A DNA stretch of 60,969 bases from Candidatus Moraniibacteriota bacterium (GTDB taxonomy: Bacteria; Patescibacteriota; Minisyncoccia; Moranbacterales; DUUL01). The notes under the pieces were generated by a model. The model was not told the origin of the DNA and searched no databases. It saw only the letters and a list, made by a program, of their open reading frames with translations. Location of the stretch: positions 1-60,969 of the forward strand of contig JBFHFF010000008.1 of the NCBI GenBank assembly GCA_041583775.1, given 5' to 3'. Below, piece after piece: positions 45,015 through 54,517 of this stretch (position 1 is the stretch's first letter; each line of letters starts with the position of its first letter). The position numbers and the translations under genes are program-made.

Positions 45015-45734
45015 TTAAAAAAATCTATTTACACCAACTTCCCAAACCAACCTAACTCCTCTTGAAAAAACCACCGAACTAATATTGAGAAAAATTACTA
45101 GATATAAAAGCTTGCTACTAATTGAAGAAAATATATATCTTTGCCTTACGGCAATAAATAAAAGAGCTAGTGCAATTGGCAACATAGCGTCTGTATCAAA
45201 AACCAAAAAAGGAAATCTCAAAAGATCTGGCAGAAGGTTGAATGCATCGAAATGGACAAGTATTTGAACTGCTAAAATAAATGCAGAATATATCAGAGTT
45301 TTGCTTACAATATTGAAGTCTGCCTGAAATCGCAACTGATCGGATAACTCTTTAAATGCACTCTTTTTTCCTTTTATGTGTTGGAAAAATTCAACAATCC
45401 CCACTAAAAATGTTAATGGCAAAAGAATAATCGAAAATGTCAGCACATACAATAGCCTCCAACCCACACAAAAATTCTCCATTATTGATGGAATTTTGAC
45501 GCTACAAACAGAAATACTAGTTTCTCCAAAAGCAATATAACAAAACAAAAGAACAATTAGAGATGATGTGAGCAAGAAAGAAGTCCAAGCCGGAAATTGC
45601 CAATTTCCAAGACTAATTTTGGTCCCAGTAATGTTGAAATCAATTTTTTCAATGTCTTTTTCCATACCCTTAAGCTGTTGTATTCTAGCTTTTCTGAGCT
45701 CCAACTCCTCCCCTCTTAGTTCATTAAGTCTCAT
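45015..45734 (-). CDS. Hypothetical membrane protein (N-terminal coiled segment, then ~5 TM)
   Basis: 239-aa ORF with no recognised motif. Confidence 0.5.
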   Translation of the reverse strand: MRLNELRGEELELRKARIQQLKGMEKDIEKIDFNITGTKISLGNWQFPAWTSFLLTSSLIVLLFCYIAFGETSISVCSVKIPSIMENFCVGWRLLYVLTFSIILLPLTFLVGIVEFFQHIKGKKSAFKELSDQLRFQADFNIVSKTLIYSAFILAVQILVHFDAFNLLPDLLRFPFLVFDTDAMLPIALALLFIAVRQRYIFSSISSKLLYLVIFLNISSVVFSRGVRLVWEVGVNRFF

Positions 45735-47309: not shown

Positions 47310-49214
47310 CTATTTCTTTTCTTCTTCTTTCTTGTCTTCAGCTTCTGCTTCTTTCACATTATCACCCTCCTTTTTCTCTCCTCCTGGTTTCGCCTCAGCT
47401 TGTGCTTGTTGAGCTGCTTTATACATCTCTTCACCAATCTTCTGCGCTTCAGTTGAAAGTTCTTCAGAAGCTTTTTTGATAGCTTCTACATCATCTCCAT
47501 CCTTTACTTTTTTCAACGCTTCAATTTTCTCATCGACTGTTTTTTTCTTCTCAGTATCAACCTTATCACCAGCCTCTTTCAGCATTTTTTCTGTTGAATG
47601 AACCAGCGAATCTGCTGCATTTTTCACTTCAATTGTTTCTGCTCTCTTTTTGTCTTCTTCAGCATGCAACTCAGCATCTTTCTTCATTTTCTCAATTTCT
47701 TCATCACTCATCCCACTGGAAGCTTCAATTCTGATTGATTGCTCTTTATTAGTAGCCTTATCAACCGCTTTAACATTCAAAATTCCGTTTGCATCAATAT
47801 CAAAAGATACTTCAATTTGAGGAACACCTCTTGGTGCTGGTGGAATTCCATCTAGCATAAATCTTCCAAGTGGTTTATTGTCAGCGGCCATTTTTCTTTC
47901 ACCTTGCAAAACATGAATCTCGACTCCTGGCTGATTATCAGCTGCAGTTGAAAATATTTGAGATTTTGTTGTTGGAATGGTTGTGTTTCTCTCAATTAAT
48001 GGGGTTAGAATTCCTCCCATTGTTTCAATTCCAAGCGTTAAAGGTGTGACATCAAGCAAAAGTACATCTTTTACATCTCCTTGCAAAACTCCCCCTTGAA
48101 TTGCAGCACCCATAGCCACAACTTCATCAGGATTTACACTTGTTGATGGTTTTTTTCCAAAAAATTCTTCCACCTTCTTTAGAACCAACGGCATTCTTGT
48201 CATTCCCCCAACCATCACAACTTCATTGATGTCTGATGTTTTCAACCCTGCATCTTCCAAAGCTTTCTTTACTGGCTCCAAAGTTCTGTCTACAAGATCT
48301 CCAACCAACTCTTCGAGTTTCGCTCGAGAAATTTTCATCACAAGATGTTTTGGACCTTCTGCTCCCGAAGTAATAAAAGGTTGATTGATTTCAGTTTCTT
48401 GTGCCGTTGAAAGTTCAATTTTTGCTTTCTCAGCAGATTCCTTGATTCTTTGTAACGCAAGAGGATCTTTTGATAAATCAACTCCTTCTTGTTTTTTAAA
48501 CTCATCTAGAATCCAAGAGATTACTTTCTCATCGAAATCATCACCCCCAAGATATGTATCACCATTTGTAGATTTTACCTCAACAGTATCTTCTGCAACT
48601 TCCAAAATCGAGATATCAAAAGTTCCACCTCCAAGATCATATACAGCTATTTTCTCATCTTTCTTTTTATTAAAACCATACGCAAGCGCAGCAGCTGTTG
48701 GTTCATTAATGATCCTTCTAACCTTCAAACCAGCAATTTCTCCAGCATCTTTAGTTGCTTTTCGTTGTGCATCATCAAAATAAGCAGGAACTGTAATCAC
48801 AGCTTCTTCAATTTTTTCTCCGAGCTTTTCCTCAGCGTCAGCTTTCAATTTTTGCAAAATCATTGCAGAAATCTCAGCTGGTCGATAAGTTTTTCCACTC
48901 ATTGTGATATTAACAGCTCCGTTTTTACCTTCTGTAATCTTGAAAGGTAGCTTAGTTGCAGTTTCCTTCACCTCACTGTCAGAAAAACTTCTCCCAATTA
49001 AACGCTTTGCCGAGTAAATAGTGTTTTCTGGATTTGTTACTGCTTGTCTCTTAGCTAAAAGACCAGCCAATCTTTCACCGTTTTTGTTAATTGCAACAAT
49101 AGAAGGTGTTGTTCTATTTCCCTCTTTGTTTTCAACAATCGTTGGGGATCCTCCTTCTACAATAGCCATTGCAGAATTTGTCGTTCCCAAATCGATTCCT
49201 AGGATTTTTCCCAT
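47310..49214 (-). CDS. dnaK: Chaperone DnaK (Hsp70)
   Basis: [17 protein letters not shown]... and [10 protein letters not shown]. 634 aa. Confidence 0.98.
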
Positions 49215-49343: not shown

Positions 49344-49793
49344 TTATTTGATCTTAACTTCGATTTTTCTTGGTTTAACATCCTCGGCCTTTGGCAAAGT
49401 AACTGTTAAAACCCCTTTTTCGAATTTAGCCTCTGCTTTATCACCTTTCACTTTGGTTGGCAATGTTACGCTTCGACTAAAAGATCCGTAACTCATTTCT
49501 TTTCGATAATAGTCTGCTCTTTCGACTTCTTTTTTGCTCTCACGGTGTCCACTAACCGTTAGAACATTATTTTCCACTGAAACTTCCACTTTATCAGTGG
49601 CAATTCCTGGGACTTCCATTTCCACAATCACATCATCTTTCTTTTGATAGATGTCAACTGCTGGCATAAAGTCTCCGCCAAAAGTTTCCTGATCGAGTCC
49701 ACGAACCAAGTCATGGAATGGATCCCACGCGACTAAATGTCTTCCTCTCATCGATTTGTGTCTTCCTGTTGCTGTGCAAAAGCTCAACAACAT
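49344..49793 (-). CDS. Small heat-shock protein, Hsp20/alpha-crystallin family
   Basis: Alpha-crystallin core PAVDIYQKKDDVIVEMEVPGI...GVLTVTLPK. The likely true start is the internal ATG at 49751 (MRGRHLVAWDPF). Confidence 0.9.
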   Translation of the reverse strand: MLLSFCTATGRHKSMRGRHLVAWDPFHDLVRGLDQETFGGDFMPAVDIYQKKDDVIVEMEVPGIATDKVEVSVENNVLTVSGHRESKKEVERADYYRKEMSYGSFSRSVTLPTKVKGDKAEAKFEKGVLTVTLPKAEDVKPRKIEVKIK

Positions 49794-49859: not shown

Positions 49860-50858
49860 CTAGCCAATTTCAACCGTTGCTGGACGAATAACTTTTTCTC
49901 CTAATTGATATCCTTTCTTAAGAATCTTCTTTATTTTTTGTTCTCCATCAGCATTTTTCTCTTCAGATTTCAATACATCATGAATCAGTTCATTTACACT
50001 ATCACCCTCTCTTGTTGGAATTTCCGTAACTCCATTACTTTCTAAAACCCCAAGTAACTGATTCTTGATATGCATCACTCCGATCACCCATCCTTCATCC
50101 TTCTGTTCCTCTGGAATATGCTCTGTTGCCATTTCAAAATTATCAATTACTGGCAAAATTTCTAAAATGAAATTTTCTAAACAGAATTTACGAAACTCAT
50201 CATTTGCCCTTTCAGTTCTTTTTTTGAAATTATCGAAATCAGCTAATGTTCTGTGCCAACCAACAAGAGATCTTTCCAATTCCATACGATTTTTAGCTTC
50301 TTTGATGGTTTCTTTTTTTTCTGCTTCAAATCCCTTGTCTTCAAGTAATTCAATCGCTTCATTAAAAGAAAGCCATTTAAATTCAGTGTGTTCATTGTCT
50401 CTCAATTCAACCTCTGTATCTTTTGTAAATGCTATATATCTAAGCCCTCTTTTTTCCGATTTAAATGCTTTATGTTCTTTCGAAAACTCCACCACATTAA
50501 TAATCGGCCCAATCTCTACATTTAAACCCGTCTCTTCCAACACTTCTCTCTCAATTGCCTCTTGAATTGTTTCACCCTTATCAATATGTCCGCCTGGCAA
50601 ATCCCATTTTTCAGGGTTTAGAGAGTTTTTAGTCCTTTTTAAAAGAAGAATTTTATGTTCAGAGTTAAGCACCACAATTTTCACGGTAATCGCCATTGGT
50701 CTTATAGCATCGTCTTCAAGCTGATGTTTTTTTAACTCTTTTTCATCCTTAATGCTTGTCCTTTTTTTAACCTTATCCATAAATTTCATCTTAAATTTTT
50801 TATTTCTTATTATTATCCTAGTTATTAAGCACTTTAGTGGTTTTTGCAATCTAATCAA
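49860..50858 (-). CDS. grpE: Nudix hydrolase - GrpE fusion protein
   Basis: The N-terminal half has a complete Nudix box GGHIDKGETIQEAIEREVLEETGL. The C-terminal half is GrpE (LADFDNFKKRTERANDEF, ILPVIDNFEMA, GYQLGEKVIRPATVEIG). The track start is a TTG overlapping the hrcA stop; ATG alternatives are at 50789 and 50780. Confidence 0.8.
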   Translation of the reverse strand: MIRLQKPLKCLITRIIIRNKKFKMKFMDKVKKRTSIKDEKELKKHQLEDDAIRPMAITVKIVVLNSEHKILLLKRTKNSLNPEKWDLPGGHIDKGETIQEAIEREVLEETGLNVEIGPIINVVEFSKEHKAFKSEKRGLRYIAFTKDTEVELRDNEHTEFKWLSFNEAIELLEDKGFEAEKKETIKEAKNRMELERSLVGWHRTLADFDNFKKRTERANDEFRKFCLENFILEILPVIDNFEMATEHIPEEQKDEGWVIGVMHIKNQLLGVLESNGVTEIPTREGDSVNELIHDVLKSEEKNADGEQKIKKILKKGYQLGEKVIRPATVEIG

Positions 50859-51628
50859 ATCAGATTAATCACGCTATGAGTTCCAGCTGCTGCAATAAAT
50901 ATAATTTTAGTCCCTTTATTATTAAAGAATCCTTTCACAAAATCAATTAGGTTCTTATTTTTATCATATTCCATTCTTTTAGGACCAATAATTGCCAACA
51001 CCCCCCTTTCACCACTTTCTAGTCGATATGGAGAAATAATCATTGAACAGTTTCTAATCTCCTCAATTGGGTTCTCTTCTCCTATAAAAATCTTCGTCTC
51101 ACCATCTTCTAATTGTTCTAGAATCTTTTCCATTTTTTCATCAATAACATCGAGGGATGCAGAAATTCTAGAAACCTCATCAAGCTTATTAAATTCAGGA
51201 TCATTCATTAGGGTATACATTCCAAAATCGTAATAATCTTTTTTCTCAATCATTCCAGAAAAAGCCAAGCATTTTGATGACATTGAAAGTGTTCTTGCCA
51301 AGGTTCTTGAAAGTCTAGTGTTTTGAGCTTTCATTTTTAACATTTCAACTTGCAAATTTCTTTGATCTTCTTGATTTAGCTCACGCTTTTTCAAAAGGTG
51401 ATCTATAAAATAACGATAACCAAAATCGGATGGAATTCTTCCAGCAGACACATGTGGTTTTAATAGAAAACCTATCCTTTCAAGCTCCAACATTTCATTG
51501 CGAATTGTTGCTGAAGATATATTATCTTTAAAGTTCTTTGTAATGGAGGAACTGCTGACTGGAATAGCCGTTTTTGTGTATTCTTGAACTATTAAACTTA
51601 AGATTTTTCCTTGTCTATCTGTAAGCAT
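50855..51628 (-). CDS. hrcA: Heat-inducible transcription repressor HrcA (compact, 257 aa)
   Basis: MLTDRQGKILSLIVQEYTKTAIPVSSSSI...ISSATIRNEMLELERIGFLLKPHVSAGRIPSDFGYRYFIDHLL. A CIRCE operator lies upstream. Confidence 0.88.
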   Translation of the reverse strand: MLTDRQGKILSLIVQEYTKTAIPVSSSSITKNFKDNISSATIRNEMLELERIGFLLKPHVSAGRIPSDFGYRYFIDHLLKKRELNQEDQRNLQVEMLKMKAQNTRLSRTLARTLSMSSKCLAFSGMIEKKDYYDFGMYTLMNDPEFNKLDEVSRISASLDVIDEKMEKILEQLEDGETKIFIGEENPIEEIRNCSMIISPYRLESGERGVLAIIGPKRMEYDKNKNLIDFVKGFFNNKGTKIIFIAAAGTHSVINLI

Positions 51629-51649
51629 TCCTTTTGGTTAATTTCTTAT

Positions 51650-51676
51650 TAGCAGTCTGTATACCTGACTGCTAAT
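51650..51676. promoter_or_regulatory. CIRCE-type operator (HrcA binding site)
   Basis: TTAGCAGTC-N9-GACTGCTAA, a perfect inverted repeat with a 9-nt spacer. The consensus is TTAGCACTC-N9-GAGTGCTAA. Lies just downstream of the hrcA promoter -10. Confidence 0.8.
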
Positions 51677-51680
51677 TTAA

Positions 51681-51709
51681 TTGTATGATACTCTGAAATA
51701 TTTGTCAAA
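51681..51709 (-). promoter_or_regulatory. Sigma-70 promoter of the hrcA operon
   Basis: Minus strand reads TTGACA (rc of 51704-51709), 17 nt, then TACAAT (rc of 51681-51686). Confidence 0.6.
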
Positions 51710-51859
51710 TATCCAGGAATCTGCTCAGAAATATTCATTTTTTACTATAATTTCAGGAATATTAAATAGTGCTGCTTTGCACAAAAAAAGTAGTTGCTTT
51801 ATAATGAACTGGAGGGATTTATCGTAGGAACTATTCGTATTCCTTTGGAATGTTTAGAT

Positions 51860-54517
51860 ATGAAAGATAACAAAGAAAAAAGTATCAAAATCGAACTTGA
51901 TTCCTTCTTGGTGAGCGTATGCAAAGATAAGAATTTACAACCTTTCTCTAACACATTTCGCTTTGAAGGTGAAAATCCCGCGCAAAACAAGCTTGGGGAA
52001 ATTTTTGGTGTAATCAGCTCCAAAGATCATTCCGAAGAATCGGCCTATCTCCCAAATCTTCTTTCGCAGGTTGCCAAAAGAGAATTTTTCTTAAAGCCAA
52101 ATCGTGGTACAGAAGAGAGTTTCGAAGCAGCTCTCAATAAAGTTAACTTGGCCCTAGCTGATCTTGCAGAACACGATGTCACCAATTGGATTAACAATTT
52201 AGATGCCGTTATCGGAGTCATCAATGAAAATGATTTCCACTTTACAAAACTTGGCGATGGACAAATTCTTCTTTCTAAAAATAAAAAAGTTGTCAATATT
52301 TCAGATGGGCTAAATGAAGATAAGAATGTACACCCAGTAAAAACCTTTTCTGATATTTCCTCTGGGACACTCTCCATTGACGATAAAATAATATTCTCAA
52401 CAAAAGAACTTTTTAAATCACTTTCTCAAGAAGAAATAAATCGTCACACAAAAACATTCACATCAAATGAATTCGACAATATCCTCAAGTCAACAGTGGA
52501 TCTTGAGGGCGAAGATGTTGGTGTTGTTATAGTCAATATCAAAAAGAAAAGTGTAATGCCAATCAAAGAGGAGAAGGATATAAAAAATTTAAATTTCTTT
52601 GGCGAAAGTGAGCTGTTTTCGGCAAGAAGTTCTCTTGGGAAAAGATGTCATTCGCTCAAAAACAAAGAAGTTGAAGATGAAAAAGTTGAAATAGAAATAA
52701 CGGAAAATAAACCAATAATTGCTCCTATTTCTTCGTTAATTCCCAAAAAAACACAAGGCGGAGAAATATATTTATCAAAAAAGGAACCGGGAGAAAAAGT
52801 AATAAAAAAACCAGTTGAATCCTTTCCAATCTCTCCTTTCGAAGAGAGTCGAGAACTTTTTATCAAAGAAACTGATAAAGATGAGTATAAACCTCAGATA
52901 GAGAAGGTTGACAATGAAACAGAAAAAAAATTTAATTCAGTTCTTGATAAAGTCAAACAAACACTCGATGAATTAAAGAAAAATAGTCCCATTTCTCCAA
53001 ATTCAATTCCACTGATTTCAAAGTTTAAAACAGATAAAACCGACGAAAACATTAGAGGCATGTCTTTCGCTAACGGCGTTTCTTATTTAACAGAACCATC
53101 AGAAGAAGCCTATAAGAAGGAAGAATTAGAAAATGAAAAACAAAGAATCCGCAAAGAAAAAAGTGATCTACGCTTAAAAAATGAAATCATAAGAGAAAAA
53201 GAAGAGCAAAACTTTAAAAGAATACAAAAAAATCTCGAGTCTTCAGCAAACAAACTAAAGCTAATTTTAAATTCTGTTAATTTTCCTGAAAAATTCAAAC
53301 GAGCCAAGCGACTGCTCTTTAAAACTATAATAAAAATAAAAGATTTTTACATAATAATCTACGAAAAAACCAACCAATTTTTTTCAAACAATAAAAGAAA
53401 ATTAACTTTTTCAAGCAAAAACAAATTTTCACCAGCGGTAAGCAAAGCCTCTTTAAAAAATGAGGGAATTGAATCAAATAAAAATCCTTTAAAGTACTTC
53501 ACTAAATTTTTAGGACACTCTTTTATAAAAAAGTTTGGAGGTGCTTTGCAATTTAAAAAAATTTTAAAATTACAAAAACTAATTTTAAAATTTACAAAGG
53601 AAAACAAAAAGGTTGTACTCATCGGCATAATTTCATTTTTAATTGTCATTTCTTTTTTTTCATTTCTCTTTAGAGAAAGAGTCCCTGAGGAAATTGTAAA
53701 TACTAACAAACAAGAAACTGAGGTACAACGAGCAACTCTTGGCAATCAACTAGAAACAACAACAATCGCAAACCTTGAATCAGAAATCCAGTCGATAACG
53801 GGCGACAAAGATGAACTATTTATATATACAACTTCTGAAAAATTCTTCAAATTAAACATTACAAACAATGAATTAACCGAAATTGCTCTTGGAGAAGATG
53901 TAAGAGGAATAAAATATCTTGTTTCTATGCCAACCTTAAGATTAATTTTCTTGATTTCAGAAGAAAATGTTTTTTCATATAGTCCAGTCGTGGACCGTTT
54001 AACAAGTGTTGATATAAAACTTCCGACGAATCTTGAAATTGGTGGTGTTGGGGTTTATCTTCAATATCTATATCTTCTAGACAAAAATTCAAACAACATT
54101 TATCAATTTCCACGAAAACCTGGCGGATTTAATAACTATAGAATTCGCATAGCCGATCAACAATCTTTCTCGACATCAATTGATTTAGCTGTTGGCGACT
54201 CCATTTTAGTTGCTTTAGAAAACGGAGAGGTTCAACAATATTTTGAAGGGAAATTGAAAAACACTTTCTCAACTAAGCCAGAAAAGGCTAAGGATATTAA
54301 GATCGTAGATATTGAAACGGTTGCAGACCCAGACAATGTTTATGCACTTGATTCAGAAAATGGTATCATTTCAAGGATTTCACAAGAAAATCCAACTGAA
54401 ACTGAAAGATTCTTCAACCAAAACTTCACAGAAGCTGAGCATCTTTGGATAAATGAAAAACAAGACAGAATTTTTGTTGTCACAAAAAATGGTGATGTTC
54501 TTAGGGCTTCTTTTTAA
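51860..54517 (+). CDS. Large membrane protein: degenerate PP2C-like N-terminal domain, K/E-rich linker, single TM, C-terminal beta-rich domain
   Basis: The track ORF begins at TTG 51794; the first ATG is 51860 (MKDNKEKSIK). The PP2C-like pattern is GEIFGVISS...FEAALNKVNLALADL...LDAVIGVINENDFHFTKLGDGQILL. TM is VVLIGIISFLIVISFFSFLF. Confidence 0.55.
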   Translation: MKDNKEKSIKIELDSFLVSVCKDKNLQPFSNTFRFEGENPAQNKLGEIFGVISSKDHSEESAYLPNLLSQVAKREFFLKPNRGTEESFEAALNKVNLALADLAEHDVTNWINNLDAVIGVINENDFHFTKLGDGQILLSKNKKVVNISDGLNEDKNVHPVKTFSDISSGTLSIDDKIIFSTKELFKSLSQEEINRHTKTFTSNEFDNILKSTVDLEGEDVGVVIVNIKKKSVMPIKEEKDIKNLNFFGESELFSARSSLGKRCHSLKNKEVEDEKVEIEITENKPIIAPISSLIPKKTQGGEIYLSKKEPGEKVIKKPVESFPISPFEESRELFIKETDKDEYKPQIEKVDNETEKKFNSVLDKVKQTLDELKKNSPISPNSIPLISKFKTDKTDENIRGMSFANGVSYLTEPSEEAYKKEELENEKQRIRKEKSDLRLKNEIIREKEEQNFKRIQKNLESSANKLKLILNSVNFPEKFKRAKRLLFKTIIKIKDFYIIIYEKTNQFFSNNKRKLTFSSKNKFSPAVSKASLKNEGIESNKNPLKYFTKFLGHSFIKKFGGALQFKKILKLQKLILKFTKENKKVVLIGIISFLIVISFFSFLFRERVPEEIVNTNKQETEVQRATLGNQLETTTIANLESEIQSITGDKDELFIYTTSEKFFKLNITNNELTEIALGEDVRGIKYLVSMPTLRLIFLISEENVFSYSPVVDRLTSVDIKLPTNLEIGGVGVYLQYLYLLDKNSNNIYQFPRKPGGFNNYRIRIADQQSFSTSIDLAVGDSILVALENGEVQQYFEGKLKNTFSTKPEKAKDIKIVDIETVADPDNVYALDSENGIISRISQENPTETERFFNQNFTEAEHLWINEKQDRIFVVTKNGDVLRASF

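Follow-up and report, generated by a model that had tools for sequence, protein, structure and literature searches.

By the usual view, GrpE is a minimal cofactor of DnaK without enzymatic activity. The described proteins (1DKG, 4ANI, 3A6M, 8GB3) share a helical stalk, a bundle of helices and, C-terminally, a beta domain. In Escherichia coli the tail ahead of the stalk binds the groove of the DnaK substrate-binding domain (SBD) via 17-IIM-19 (PMC12915176), and it was recently shown that the disordered GrpE tail drives substrate release from DnaK (PMC12915176, PMC10803776). In the full-length DnaK-GrpE structure of Mycobacterium tuberculosis, the N-terminal tip of the stalk contacts the SBD and not the nucleotide cleft (PMC10803776). 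Nudix domains in turn are found joined to functionally linked partners, as in NadM-Nudix (2QJT) and the MutT-ThiE type (PRK08999), where the partners are enzymes of nucleotide or cofactor metabolism. Here we describe a Nudix domain whose partner is the chaperone cofactor itself. The protein is encoded by an uncultivated Candidatus Moraniibacteriota bacterium, on positions 1 to 60,969 of contig JBFHFF010000008.1 (assembly GCA_041583775.1), a stretch of 60,969 nucleotides hereafter called the window. It has the stalk, bundle, beta domain and conserved residues of canonical GrpE, but carries a Nudix domain of ~120 residues ahead of the stalk and lacks the acidic tail with an SBD-binding motif of the IIM or DIIE type.

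The gene is an uninterrupted open reading frame (ORF) on the minus strand, 49860-50858, of 332 aa when counted from a TTG codon in overlap with the stop codon of hrcA. The true start is probably ATG 50789 (309 aa) or ATG 50780 (306 aa); gene callers give a product of 306 aa (P0001), and homologues open with MKLMDKVKK or MDKVKK. The probable coding sequence is 49860..50789 on the minus strand, the maximal ORF reaching TTG 50858. Residue numbers below refer to P0001, except that those of Pfam matches refer to the 332-aa form. The NUDIX profile (PF00293) matched ORF residues 57-176 (E 2.6e-24, 86 bits, cut-off 21.1) and the GrpE profile (PF01025) matched ORF residues 179-331 (E 5.1e-36, 124 bits, cut-off 25.8) over profile positions 14-163 of 165. 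In GGHIDKGETIQEAIEREVLEETGL the protein has a complete Nudix box, which fits GX5EX7REUXEEXGU. An earlier reading of this locus (the original prediction) had placed a catalytic Nudix box and a GrpE in one uninterrupted frame in the grpE slot. All four peptide strings that it quoted are present in the translation, and both domain assignments are borne out by the profile matches and by the fold described below.

An AlphaFold2 model, built on an alignment of 81 sequences, reached a mean predicted local distance difference test score (pLDDT) of 89.1 and a predicted template modelling score (pTM) of 0.66. It shows a Nudix sandwich at residues 30-145, a continuous helix at 151-220 and, after it, a further helix (230-248) and the beta domain (251-305), with a pLDDT of about 90 in the GrpE parts. 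Along the gene (all features on the minus strand), residues 1-27 form a short Lys-rich N-terminal tail (50700..50780; pLDDT 46-70, low-confidence or disordered), followed by the Nudix domain of the type termed T1 below (28-150; 50331..50699), an alpha/beta/alpha sandwich that contains the Nudix box GHIDKGETIQEAIEREVLEETGL (64-86; 50523..50591). Structural comparison of this domain with Foldseek returned 621 Protein Data Bank (PDB) matches at E<=1e-3, the top 50 of which were all Nudix proteins, 3GRN among them. At the T1-specific junction motif GFEAEK (50316..50333), which spans a run of eight A, the C-terminal helix of the Nudix domain continues directly, in the model, into the GrpE long helix, comprising the stalk and the first bundle helix (151-220; 50121..50330). 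Within this segment lies G-W-H-R (50250..50261), the fixed point at which, in related genomes, alternative N-terminal modules are attached to the conserved GrpE core. The four-helix-bundle helix and the C-terminal beta domain (221-306; 49863..50120) complete the protein.

The GrpE part aligns to the structures from Geobacillus kaustophilus (4ANI), Thermus thermophilus (3A6M) and E. coli (1DKG). Residues R177, A180, N184, K186/K187/R188 and F199 correspond to R64, A67, N71, R73-75 and F86 of the E. coli protein, and P210, D213, G234, G290 and R299 to P97, D100, G122, G177 and R186; the E. coli sequence used for this mapping passed checks of length, G122, IIM at 17-19 and alignment to 1DKG. DnaK-contact and structural residues are thus kept, most of them invariant among the 81 sequences, and R177, K186, K187 and R188 form the basic patch of the stalk. 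The protein ends in a complete GrpE of ~155 residues, with full stalk, bundle, beta domain and DnaK-contact residues, which fills the sole grpE slot of its operon; the part ahead of it is a Nudix domain of the small MutT-like kind.

The junction at residue ~151 corresponds to about residue 38 of E. coli GrpE, where the ordered stalk begins, and the alignment of the stalk starts at residue 17 of T. thermophilus GrpE and at about residue 41-56 of E. coli GrpE. Since the junction falls where the stalk starts, no part of the thermosensing paired helix is lost. The idea, raised in the original prediction, that the Nudix domain replaces the thermosensing helix was rejected, as the stalk is full-length and forms the continuous helix 151-220; it is the disordered acidic tail that is replaced instead. 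Tails were scored for the motif [DE][ILVMF]{2,3}[DEQ], an acidic-flanked hydrophobic pair or triplet, with shuffled tails as control. The motif was present in 33 of 67 unfused relatives (9.8 ± 3.0 in shuffled tails), as DIIE 12 times and as EIVVE 5 times, and in 1 of 160 fused tails (4.3 ± 2.0 in shuffles). The unfused closest relatives have acidic tails with a mean charge of -4.9 and a mean length of 39 aa; the tails of the fused proteins are short and Lys-rich, with a mean of 19 aa and a charge of +1.4. A cruder test for three consecutive hydrophobic residues did not discriminate (2 of 109 fused proteins, 7 of 64 ordinary GrpEs). The fused protein of the window has no SBD-binding tail motif, which is an accessory feature and not needed for the assignment as GrpE. 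These comparisons indicate that the Nudix domain occupies the place of the acidic, SBD-directed release tail of the unfused sister proteins. In the modelled arrangement it would sit at that end of the stalk which faces the SBD; helix length gives a rough estimate of ~60-70 Å for its distance to the nucleotide cleft.

A homology search over 5.8 billion proteins gave 358 matches at E<=1e-5; in this as in the other searches, the best 120-150 matches were examined. Both PF01025 and PF00293 were found in all of the best 120 matches listed, which are 37-78% identical to the query. Their sources are NCBI, JGI, ENA and Logan assemblies, with contigs of up to 1.1 Mb, and they are labelled Candidatus Moranbacteria, Moraniibacteriota or Patescibacteria group. 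Three loci (L003, L005 and L006) are titled 'Candidatus Fimivivens' or 'uncultured Bdellovibrionales' although their operon is of the Moranbacteria type and their DnaK and GrpE are very similar, and these labels look unreliable. The fused proteins are named just 'GrpE' in the databases, apart from two JGI entries called 'nucleoside triphosphatase', and the names of cluster members hold nothing other than 'molecular chaperone GrpE'. Both domains are well known, and precomputed Pfam annotations show the architecture. The original prediction had allowed that the fusion might prove common and already annotated; it is common within one candidate phylum, while its annotation is merely that of a GrpE. 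Full-text searches of the openly accessible literature returned no description of a Nudix-GrpE fusion, in line with the earlier statement that no characterised example was known.

Across 109 homologues the Nudix box is strongly conserved, with G64 in 109, E70 in 107, R78 in 107, E79 in 109 and E83 in 109 sequences, and position 82 is Glu in 100 and Asp in 5 more. Catalytic residues are thus at least 92% conserved, and where the strict pattern fails, the position concerned is in most cases Gly85, which is not catalytic. Averaged over pairs, identity is 0.51 in the Nudix domain, 0.53 in the stalk, 0.49 in the remaining GrpE and 0.22 in the N-terminal tail; because identities are equal in the two domains, the Nudix domain is under the same constraint as GrpE. 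This conservation bears on the view that the Nudix domain has no catalytic role and either senses a nucleotide or regulates substrate release sterically, taking over from the tail. Its position and the loss of the tail motif would suit such a role, but the core RE-x2-EE is near-invariant in the family and kept in every extra Nudix domain described below, which is unexpected for a pseudoenzyme, and we consider a non-catalytic role very improbable.

The junction peptide DGFExEK is among the best-conserved segments of the family, with G150, F151, E152, E154 and K155 invariant or nearly so. An assembly or sequencing artefact that joined two genes might be suspected from the A8 homopolymer in the junction codons of the window. 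It was rejected: the same architecture and junction motif recur in more than 100 proteins from independent assemblies, so a frameshift or missed stop codon at the junction is excluded, and the chance that the fusion is artefactual is negligible.

The unfused GrpE of locus L006 (same operon, 180 aa), a comparator from a sample of contigs, was used to seed a search, in which fused and unfused proteins were interleaved. Among the 120 nearest cores, 70 carried an unfused tail, 18 a T1 Nudix domain (the type of the window), 15 a T3 Nudix, 12 a T2 Nudix, 1 another Nudix and 4 a non-Nudix domain of ~165 aa. A neighbour-joining tree was built from 229 GrpE cores; it is approximate, and its parsimony counts, like the motif statistics, concern related sequences. 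On it the presence of Nudix changes at least 22 times, against a mean of 60.7 and a minimum of 52 with shuffled tips. Fused and unfused proteins that are closest to each other have cores 88-95% identical; in pairwise alignments they are near identical from 'GWKRCQADFENYKKR' to the C-terminus and show no similarity upstream. That near-identical cores exist unfused points to the fusion as accessory, not essential to GrpE.

The Nudix types were defined by seeds and motifs, after single-linkage clustering of the N-terminal modules had lumped them. T1 is marked by KWDLPGG...DGFExEK, T2 by GPWExxGG and T3 by xFGGHVExGE; scores are 40-60 bits between types versus 100-340 bits within a type, and the Nudix box is complete in all three. 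The exchange is seen directly in the syntenic loci L087 (T2-GrpE) and L088 (unfused), which share the order of genes for cysteinyl-tRNA synthetase, CorA, YidD, a hypothetical protein, hrcA, grpE and dnaK and are 81-82% identical in DNA through hrcA, GrpE core and dnaK. Between them, L087 4951-5463 and L088 4931-5175 have no detectable similarity, and homology returns at the L-x-G-W-K-R codons. The fusion is polyphyletic, and in this phylum the N-terminal position of GrpE is an exchangeable cassette that can be a plain tail, one of three unrelated Nudix lineages, a tandem of Nudix domains or the nucleotidyltransferase described below, all cassettes being joined at the same GWKR point. Because independent fusions recur at one point, the physical link between Nudix and GrpE appears to have been selected.

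The non-Nudix cassette (P0285, P0302, P0307, P0291) has a G-S...D-x-D motif and matches to nucleotidyltransferase families in Pfam that stay below threshold; a PDB sequence search with it returned no match. A homology search found two stand-alone relatives only, P0390 and P0391, among the matches listed, and the domain is rare. The AlphaFold2 model of stand-alone P0390 (pLDDT 90.4, pTM 0.85) matched ANT(2'')-Ia, TM1012, LnuA and MenT1 in Foldseek with probability 1.0 and template modelling (TM) scores of 0.54-0.63; therefore, the cassette is assigned a Pol-beta-type nucleotidyltransferase fold. The eukaryotic BAG-family exchange factors of Hsp70 likewise combine a conserved exchange module with variable N-terminal modules that link Hsp70 elsewhere. 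BAG, however, has a fold unrelated to GrpE, its modules are interaction domains and not enzymes, and its variants are paralogues and not alleles at one locus.

That all cassettes other than tails are nucleotide-processing enzymes, placed beside the SBD docking site and exchanged like alleles in a manner that resembles conflict or regulatory systems, would suit an adaptor role of GrpE. It would bring nucleotide-modifying enzymes to DnaK or its clients, with the Nudix domain removing a pyrophosphate adduct (e.g. protein ADP-ribose) and the nucleotidyltransferase adding a nucleotidyl group. T1, however, resembles MutT-like enzymes that act on small molecules, no modifying partner or target is known and the model is entirely inferential; we hold it to be improbable. 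A broader proposal is that the GrpE N-terminus of Moranbacteria may be a hot-swappable dock that places nucleotide enzymes by the DnaK SBD where the release tail would otherwise be. As an adaptor, GrpE would then connect the Hsp70 cycle with the turnover of nucleotide alarmones, or with a modification derived from nucleotides on DnaK or on its clients, and cassette exchange would be driven by diversifying selection from the stress niche or phage conflict. We regard this proposal as doubtful.

Nine of the 120 listed matches are tandem Nudix-Nudix-GrpE proteins of about 450 aa (P0014, P0060, P0063, P0066, P0074, P0084, P0086, P0088, P0091; locus L082 6001-7353). In Type A, with 7 representatives, an extra N-terminal Nudix domain (67-79% mutual identity) precedes the T1 domain; in Type B (P0014, P0091) a second Nudix is inserted between T1 and stalk, the two inserts being 32% identical. 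L003 (300 aa) and P0091 (445 aa) are near identical save for the insert. Extra Nudix domains were gained at least three times, each keeping the RE-x2-EE core. Exhaustive phmmer searches with the Nudix domain alone further identified the stand-alone T1 relatives P0122, P0140 and P0171, which end in the same DGFExEK motif plus helix and are not adjacent to grpE. The helix is therefore a feature of the Nudix subfamily itself, and the two parts of the fusion are joined helix to helix. The P0171 locus (L084 3103-7460, L085) has neighbours of nucleotide-metabolism type (thymidylate-kinase-like, AAA_18 kinase-like, HAD phosphatase and LOG/lysine-decarboxylase-like), and many further near matches of the Nudix search are tandem Nudix-Nudix proteins of ~280 aa.

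These relatives also bear on whether the fusion serves co-expression only, in that an ordinary housecleaning Nudix gene came to lie in the heat-shock operon and lost its stop codon, and the product interacts with DnaK and GrpE through nothing beyond a shared promoter and polypeptide. Stand-alone T1 homologues with the same C-terminal helix in unrelated contexts, near-identical GrpE cores without Nudix and the compactness of genomes of the candidate phyla radiation are what such a 'Rosetta-stone' fusion would lead one to expect. However, at least three unrelated Nudix lineages and a nucleotidyltransferase were independently fused at exactly the same point, and Nudix domains were added again in the tandem forms, a recurrence that is hard to explain without selection for the link. 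The SBD-directed tail motif is lost where Nudix is present, and an intermediate with hrcA, nudix and grpE as separate genes was not seen in the loci examined. We consider co-expression as the sole basis of the fusion unlikely, though it is the alternative to be taken most seriously.

The fusion gene is located in a heat-shock operon with the order hrcA, Nudix-grpE, hsp20, dnaK, all on the same (minus) strand. A sigma-70-type promoter, TTGACA-17 nt-TACAAT (51680..51708, minus strand), matches at 11 of 12 positions and is the best promoter match of the region. Between it and the ATG of hrcA lies a CIRCE-type HrcA operator (51649..51675, not assigned to a strand), TTAGCAGTC-N9-GACTGCTAA, a perfect inverted repeat that was the single match, with 2 mismatches to the consensus, and had 0 matches in 100 shuffles. 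Compared with the Bacillus-type consensus, one and the same position is altered in each arm (GCAGTC in place of GCACTC, GACTGC in place of GAGTGC), a compensatory change that leaves the palindrome perfect. The repressor gene hrcA (50855..51628; PF01628, E 2.3e-23) is followed by the fusion gene, by hsp20 for a small heat-shock protein (49344..49793; PF00011, E 2.2e-23) and by dnaK (47310..49214; PF00012, E 1.2e-258). What is expected of an HrcA/CIRCE operon was found, namely hrcA upstream, dnaK downstream and the CIRCE inverted repeat at the promoter. Because promoter and CIRCE precede hrcA, the Nudix-GrpE gene belongs to a classical HrcA-controlled heat-shock operon, and it shares with canonical grpE the position between hrcA and dnaK under CIRCE control. 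The hrcA-grpE-dnaK operon of the original prediction stands as to its flanks, but hsp20 sits between grpE and dnaK. The gene for DnaJ is not adjacent. The context hrcA, Nudix-grpE, (hsp20), dnaK, (dnaJ) is kept in divergent family members, with hsp20 between grpE and dnaK also in L005, L006, L082 and L087. Its presence is variable, in that it is found in the window and these four loci versus L003, L081, L088 and L089.

The best PDB match for the Nudix domain is 3GRN, a 'MutT-related' structural-genomics entry from Methanosarcina mazei (E 4e-14, TM score 0.76), which is also the best by sequence; 3GRN differs in being stand-alone, with no GrpE and without the DGFExEK helix extension. With similar scores follow the asymmetric Ap4A (diadenosine tetraphosphate) hydrolases human NUDT2 (3U53), Chlamydia CT771 (4MPO) and that of Aquifex (3I7U), Ndx1 (Ap6A), NUDT15, NUDX1 and MutT, as well as a putative CTP pyrophosphatase and a GDP-mannose hydrolase. 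The small single-domain enzymes among these (NUDT2, CT771, the Aquifex protein and the MutT/NUDT1/NUDT15 type) match at E 1e-9 to 1e-5, NUDT2 and CT771 at 1e-9. The substrate of this small MutT-like domain is probably a nucleoside tri- or polyphosphate. A circumstantial hint towards alarmones is that related Nudix domains (33-36% identity) stand beside RelA/SpoT-SLOG-RyR domains and in a leucyl-tRNA synthetase (LeuRS)-like protein; the alarmone hints are weak and circumstantial. The proteins concerned are P0136 (1268 aa) and P0151/P0152 (~1160 aa). The LeuRS-like protein, in which a Nudix domain occurs three times, combines catalytic and anticodon-binding parts of LeuRS with a HAD domain; the other arrangement is a tandem with RelA/SpoT synthetase, SLOG and RyR domains.

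The reading we prefer, to which we give an even chance of being right, is that of a bifunctional heat-shock protein in which the GrpE exchange core is normal and bears, at the SBD-proximal tip of its coiled coil, a pair of Nudix domains that are catalytically active, co-regulated under stress and stand where the release tail would be. The GrpE core would dimerise and catalyse ADP/ATP exchange on DnaK as usual, and the dimer would hold the two Nudix domains at the N-terminal coiled-coil tip, beside the docking site of the DnaK SBD. There they would act as Mg2+-dependent pyrophosphohydrolases induced together with the chaperones. Their most probable substrates would be stress-generated nucleoside polyphosphates, such as Np4N-type alarmones and damaged or non-canonical nucleoside triphosphates (NTPs), and not ADP from DnaK. 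Tethering would most likely give co-regulation, obligate dimerisation and possibly temperature-dependent control via the stalk. The fusion would remove tail-mediated substrate release, and the DnaK cycle should therefore differ from that of tail-bearing relatives.

Several observations weigh against a bifunctional protein of this kind. Relatives with GrpE cores up to 95% identical have no Nudix domain, the tail-motif contrast uses phylogenetically non-independent sequences, and the position of the Nudix domain relative to DnaK rests on homology to 8GB3 and 4ANI. A plain grpE may also be present elsewhere in the genome; in favour of the reading, hidden Markov models built from the family found no second grpE or Nudix gene in the 61-kb window, to which the search was confined. 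As to the substrate, hydrolases of NTPs, of Ap4A/Ap6A and of GDP-sugars all occur among the closest Nudix relatives with similar scores, and the equivalog cut-offs of NCBIfam are not reached (MutT, TIGR00586, 42.3 versus 97.9; NudB 45.9 versus 103; NudG 42.4 versus 156). The signatures that mark individual Nudix activities are likewise taken as absent, given their counts among the 109 homologues. A Tyr about 16-18 residues past the box, typical of Ap4A hydrolases, is found in 3, and the Pro of ADP-ribose pyrophosphatases, about 16 residues past the box, is present at +15..+17 in 11. The NADH-specific NudC motif SQPWPFPxS occurs in 0, and the NuCoA motif of CoA pyrophosphatases, LLTxR[SA]x3Rx3Gx3FPGG upstream of the box, in 0 (strict) or 6 (relaxed). 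The Nudix domain of the window thus differs from the Ap4A hydrolases and NTP pyrophosphatases, which are themselves not fused to a chaperone cofactor, in reaching no family cut-off and in lacking the Ap4A Tyr.

ADP is not a typical Nudix substrate. This counts against a model in the line of the original prediction, in which the Nudix domain would hydrolyse ADP, or Ap4A at the nucleotide site of DnaK, during GrpE-mediated release and so make exchange directional. In its favour are the Ap4A hydrolases among the closest solved relatives, the fusion of related Nudix domains to alarmone-related enzymes and the cross-linking of Ap4A to DnaK, GroEL and ClpB in E. coli, a result of Johnstone and Farr (1991) as cited in PMC10148737. 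The Nudix domain, however, would lie at the far, SBD-proximal end of a helix of ~70 residues (model; PMC10803776), a tethered hydrolase would gain nothing on freely diffusing ADP at millimolar concentration, and the tyrosine signature of Ap4A hydrolases is rare in the family. Because of this geometry and because tethering offers no advantage on an abundant diffusing metabolite, interception of ADP at the nucleotide-binding domain is disfavoured. We judge coupling to the ADP or Ap4A of DnaK to be improbable, and the bifunctional protein with a stress-induced Nudix pair remains the reading that we favour.

Other features of the locus and its surroundings were also recorded. Downstream of dnaK lie ORFs for a protein without assignment and a MurG-type glycosyltransferase; a 239-aa ORF at 45015-45734 downstream of dnaK has no Pfam match. 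A 907-aa ORF divergent from hrcA (51794-54517, plus strand) has none either. In the 61-kb window no Rfam family reached its gathering score, and there were no calls of tRNA, rRNA or riboswitches. A test for foreign origin by GC content, overall and at third codon positions, revealed no anomaly, and repeats flanking the Nudix cassette of the window were only short AT-rich matches at chance level. In relatives, L082 has an additional gene of the 23S-rRNA-IVP family between grpE and dnaK, and IS200/IS605-type Y1 transposase genes (PF01797) adjoin the heat-shock operon in two cases, between dnaK and dnaJ at the P0119 locus and just upstream of hrcA in L089 (3624-4094). These transposases may bear on rearrangements at the heat-shock locus.

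To a chaperone specialist, the surprising part is the polyphyletic, cassette-like swap of the GrpE tail for nucleotide enzymes. A candidate phylum supplies natural variants in which the tail is replaced by enzymes, beside near-isogenic relatives that bear a tail. Tail, T1, T2 and T3 Nudix and nucleotidyltransferase on ~90% identical cores form a ready-made series on the part that GrpE's N-terminus plays in the Hsp70 cycle. Hundreds of database entries named just 'GrpE' hide an enzyme domain. To our knowledge, the binding of Ap4A to DnaK, GroEL and ClpB has been without explanation since 1991, and the fusion could physically link chaperones with stress nucleotides such as Ap4A.

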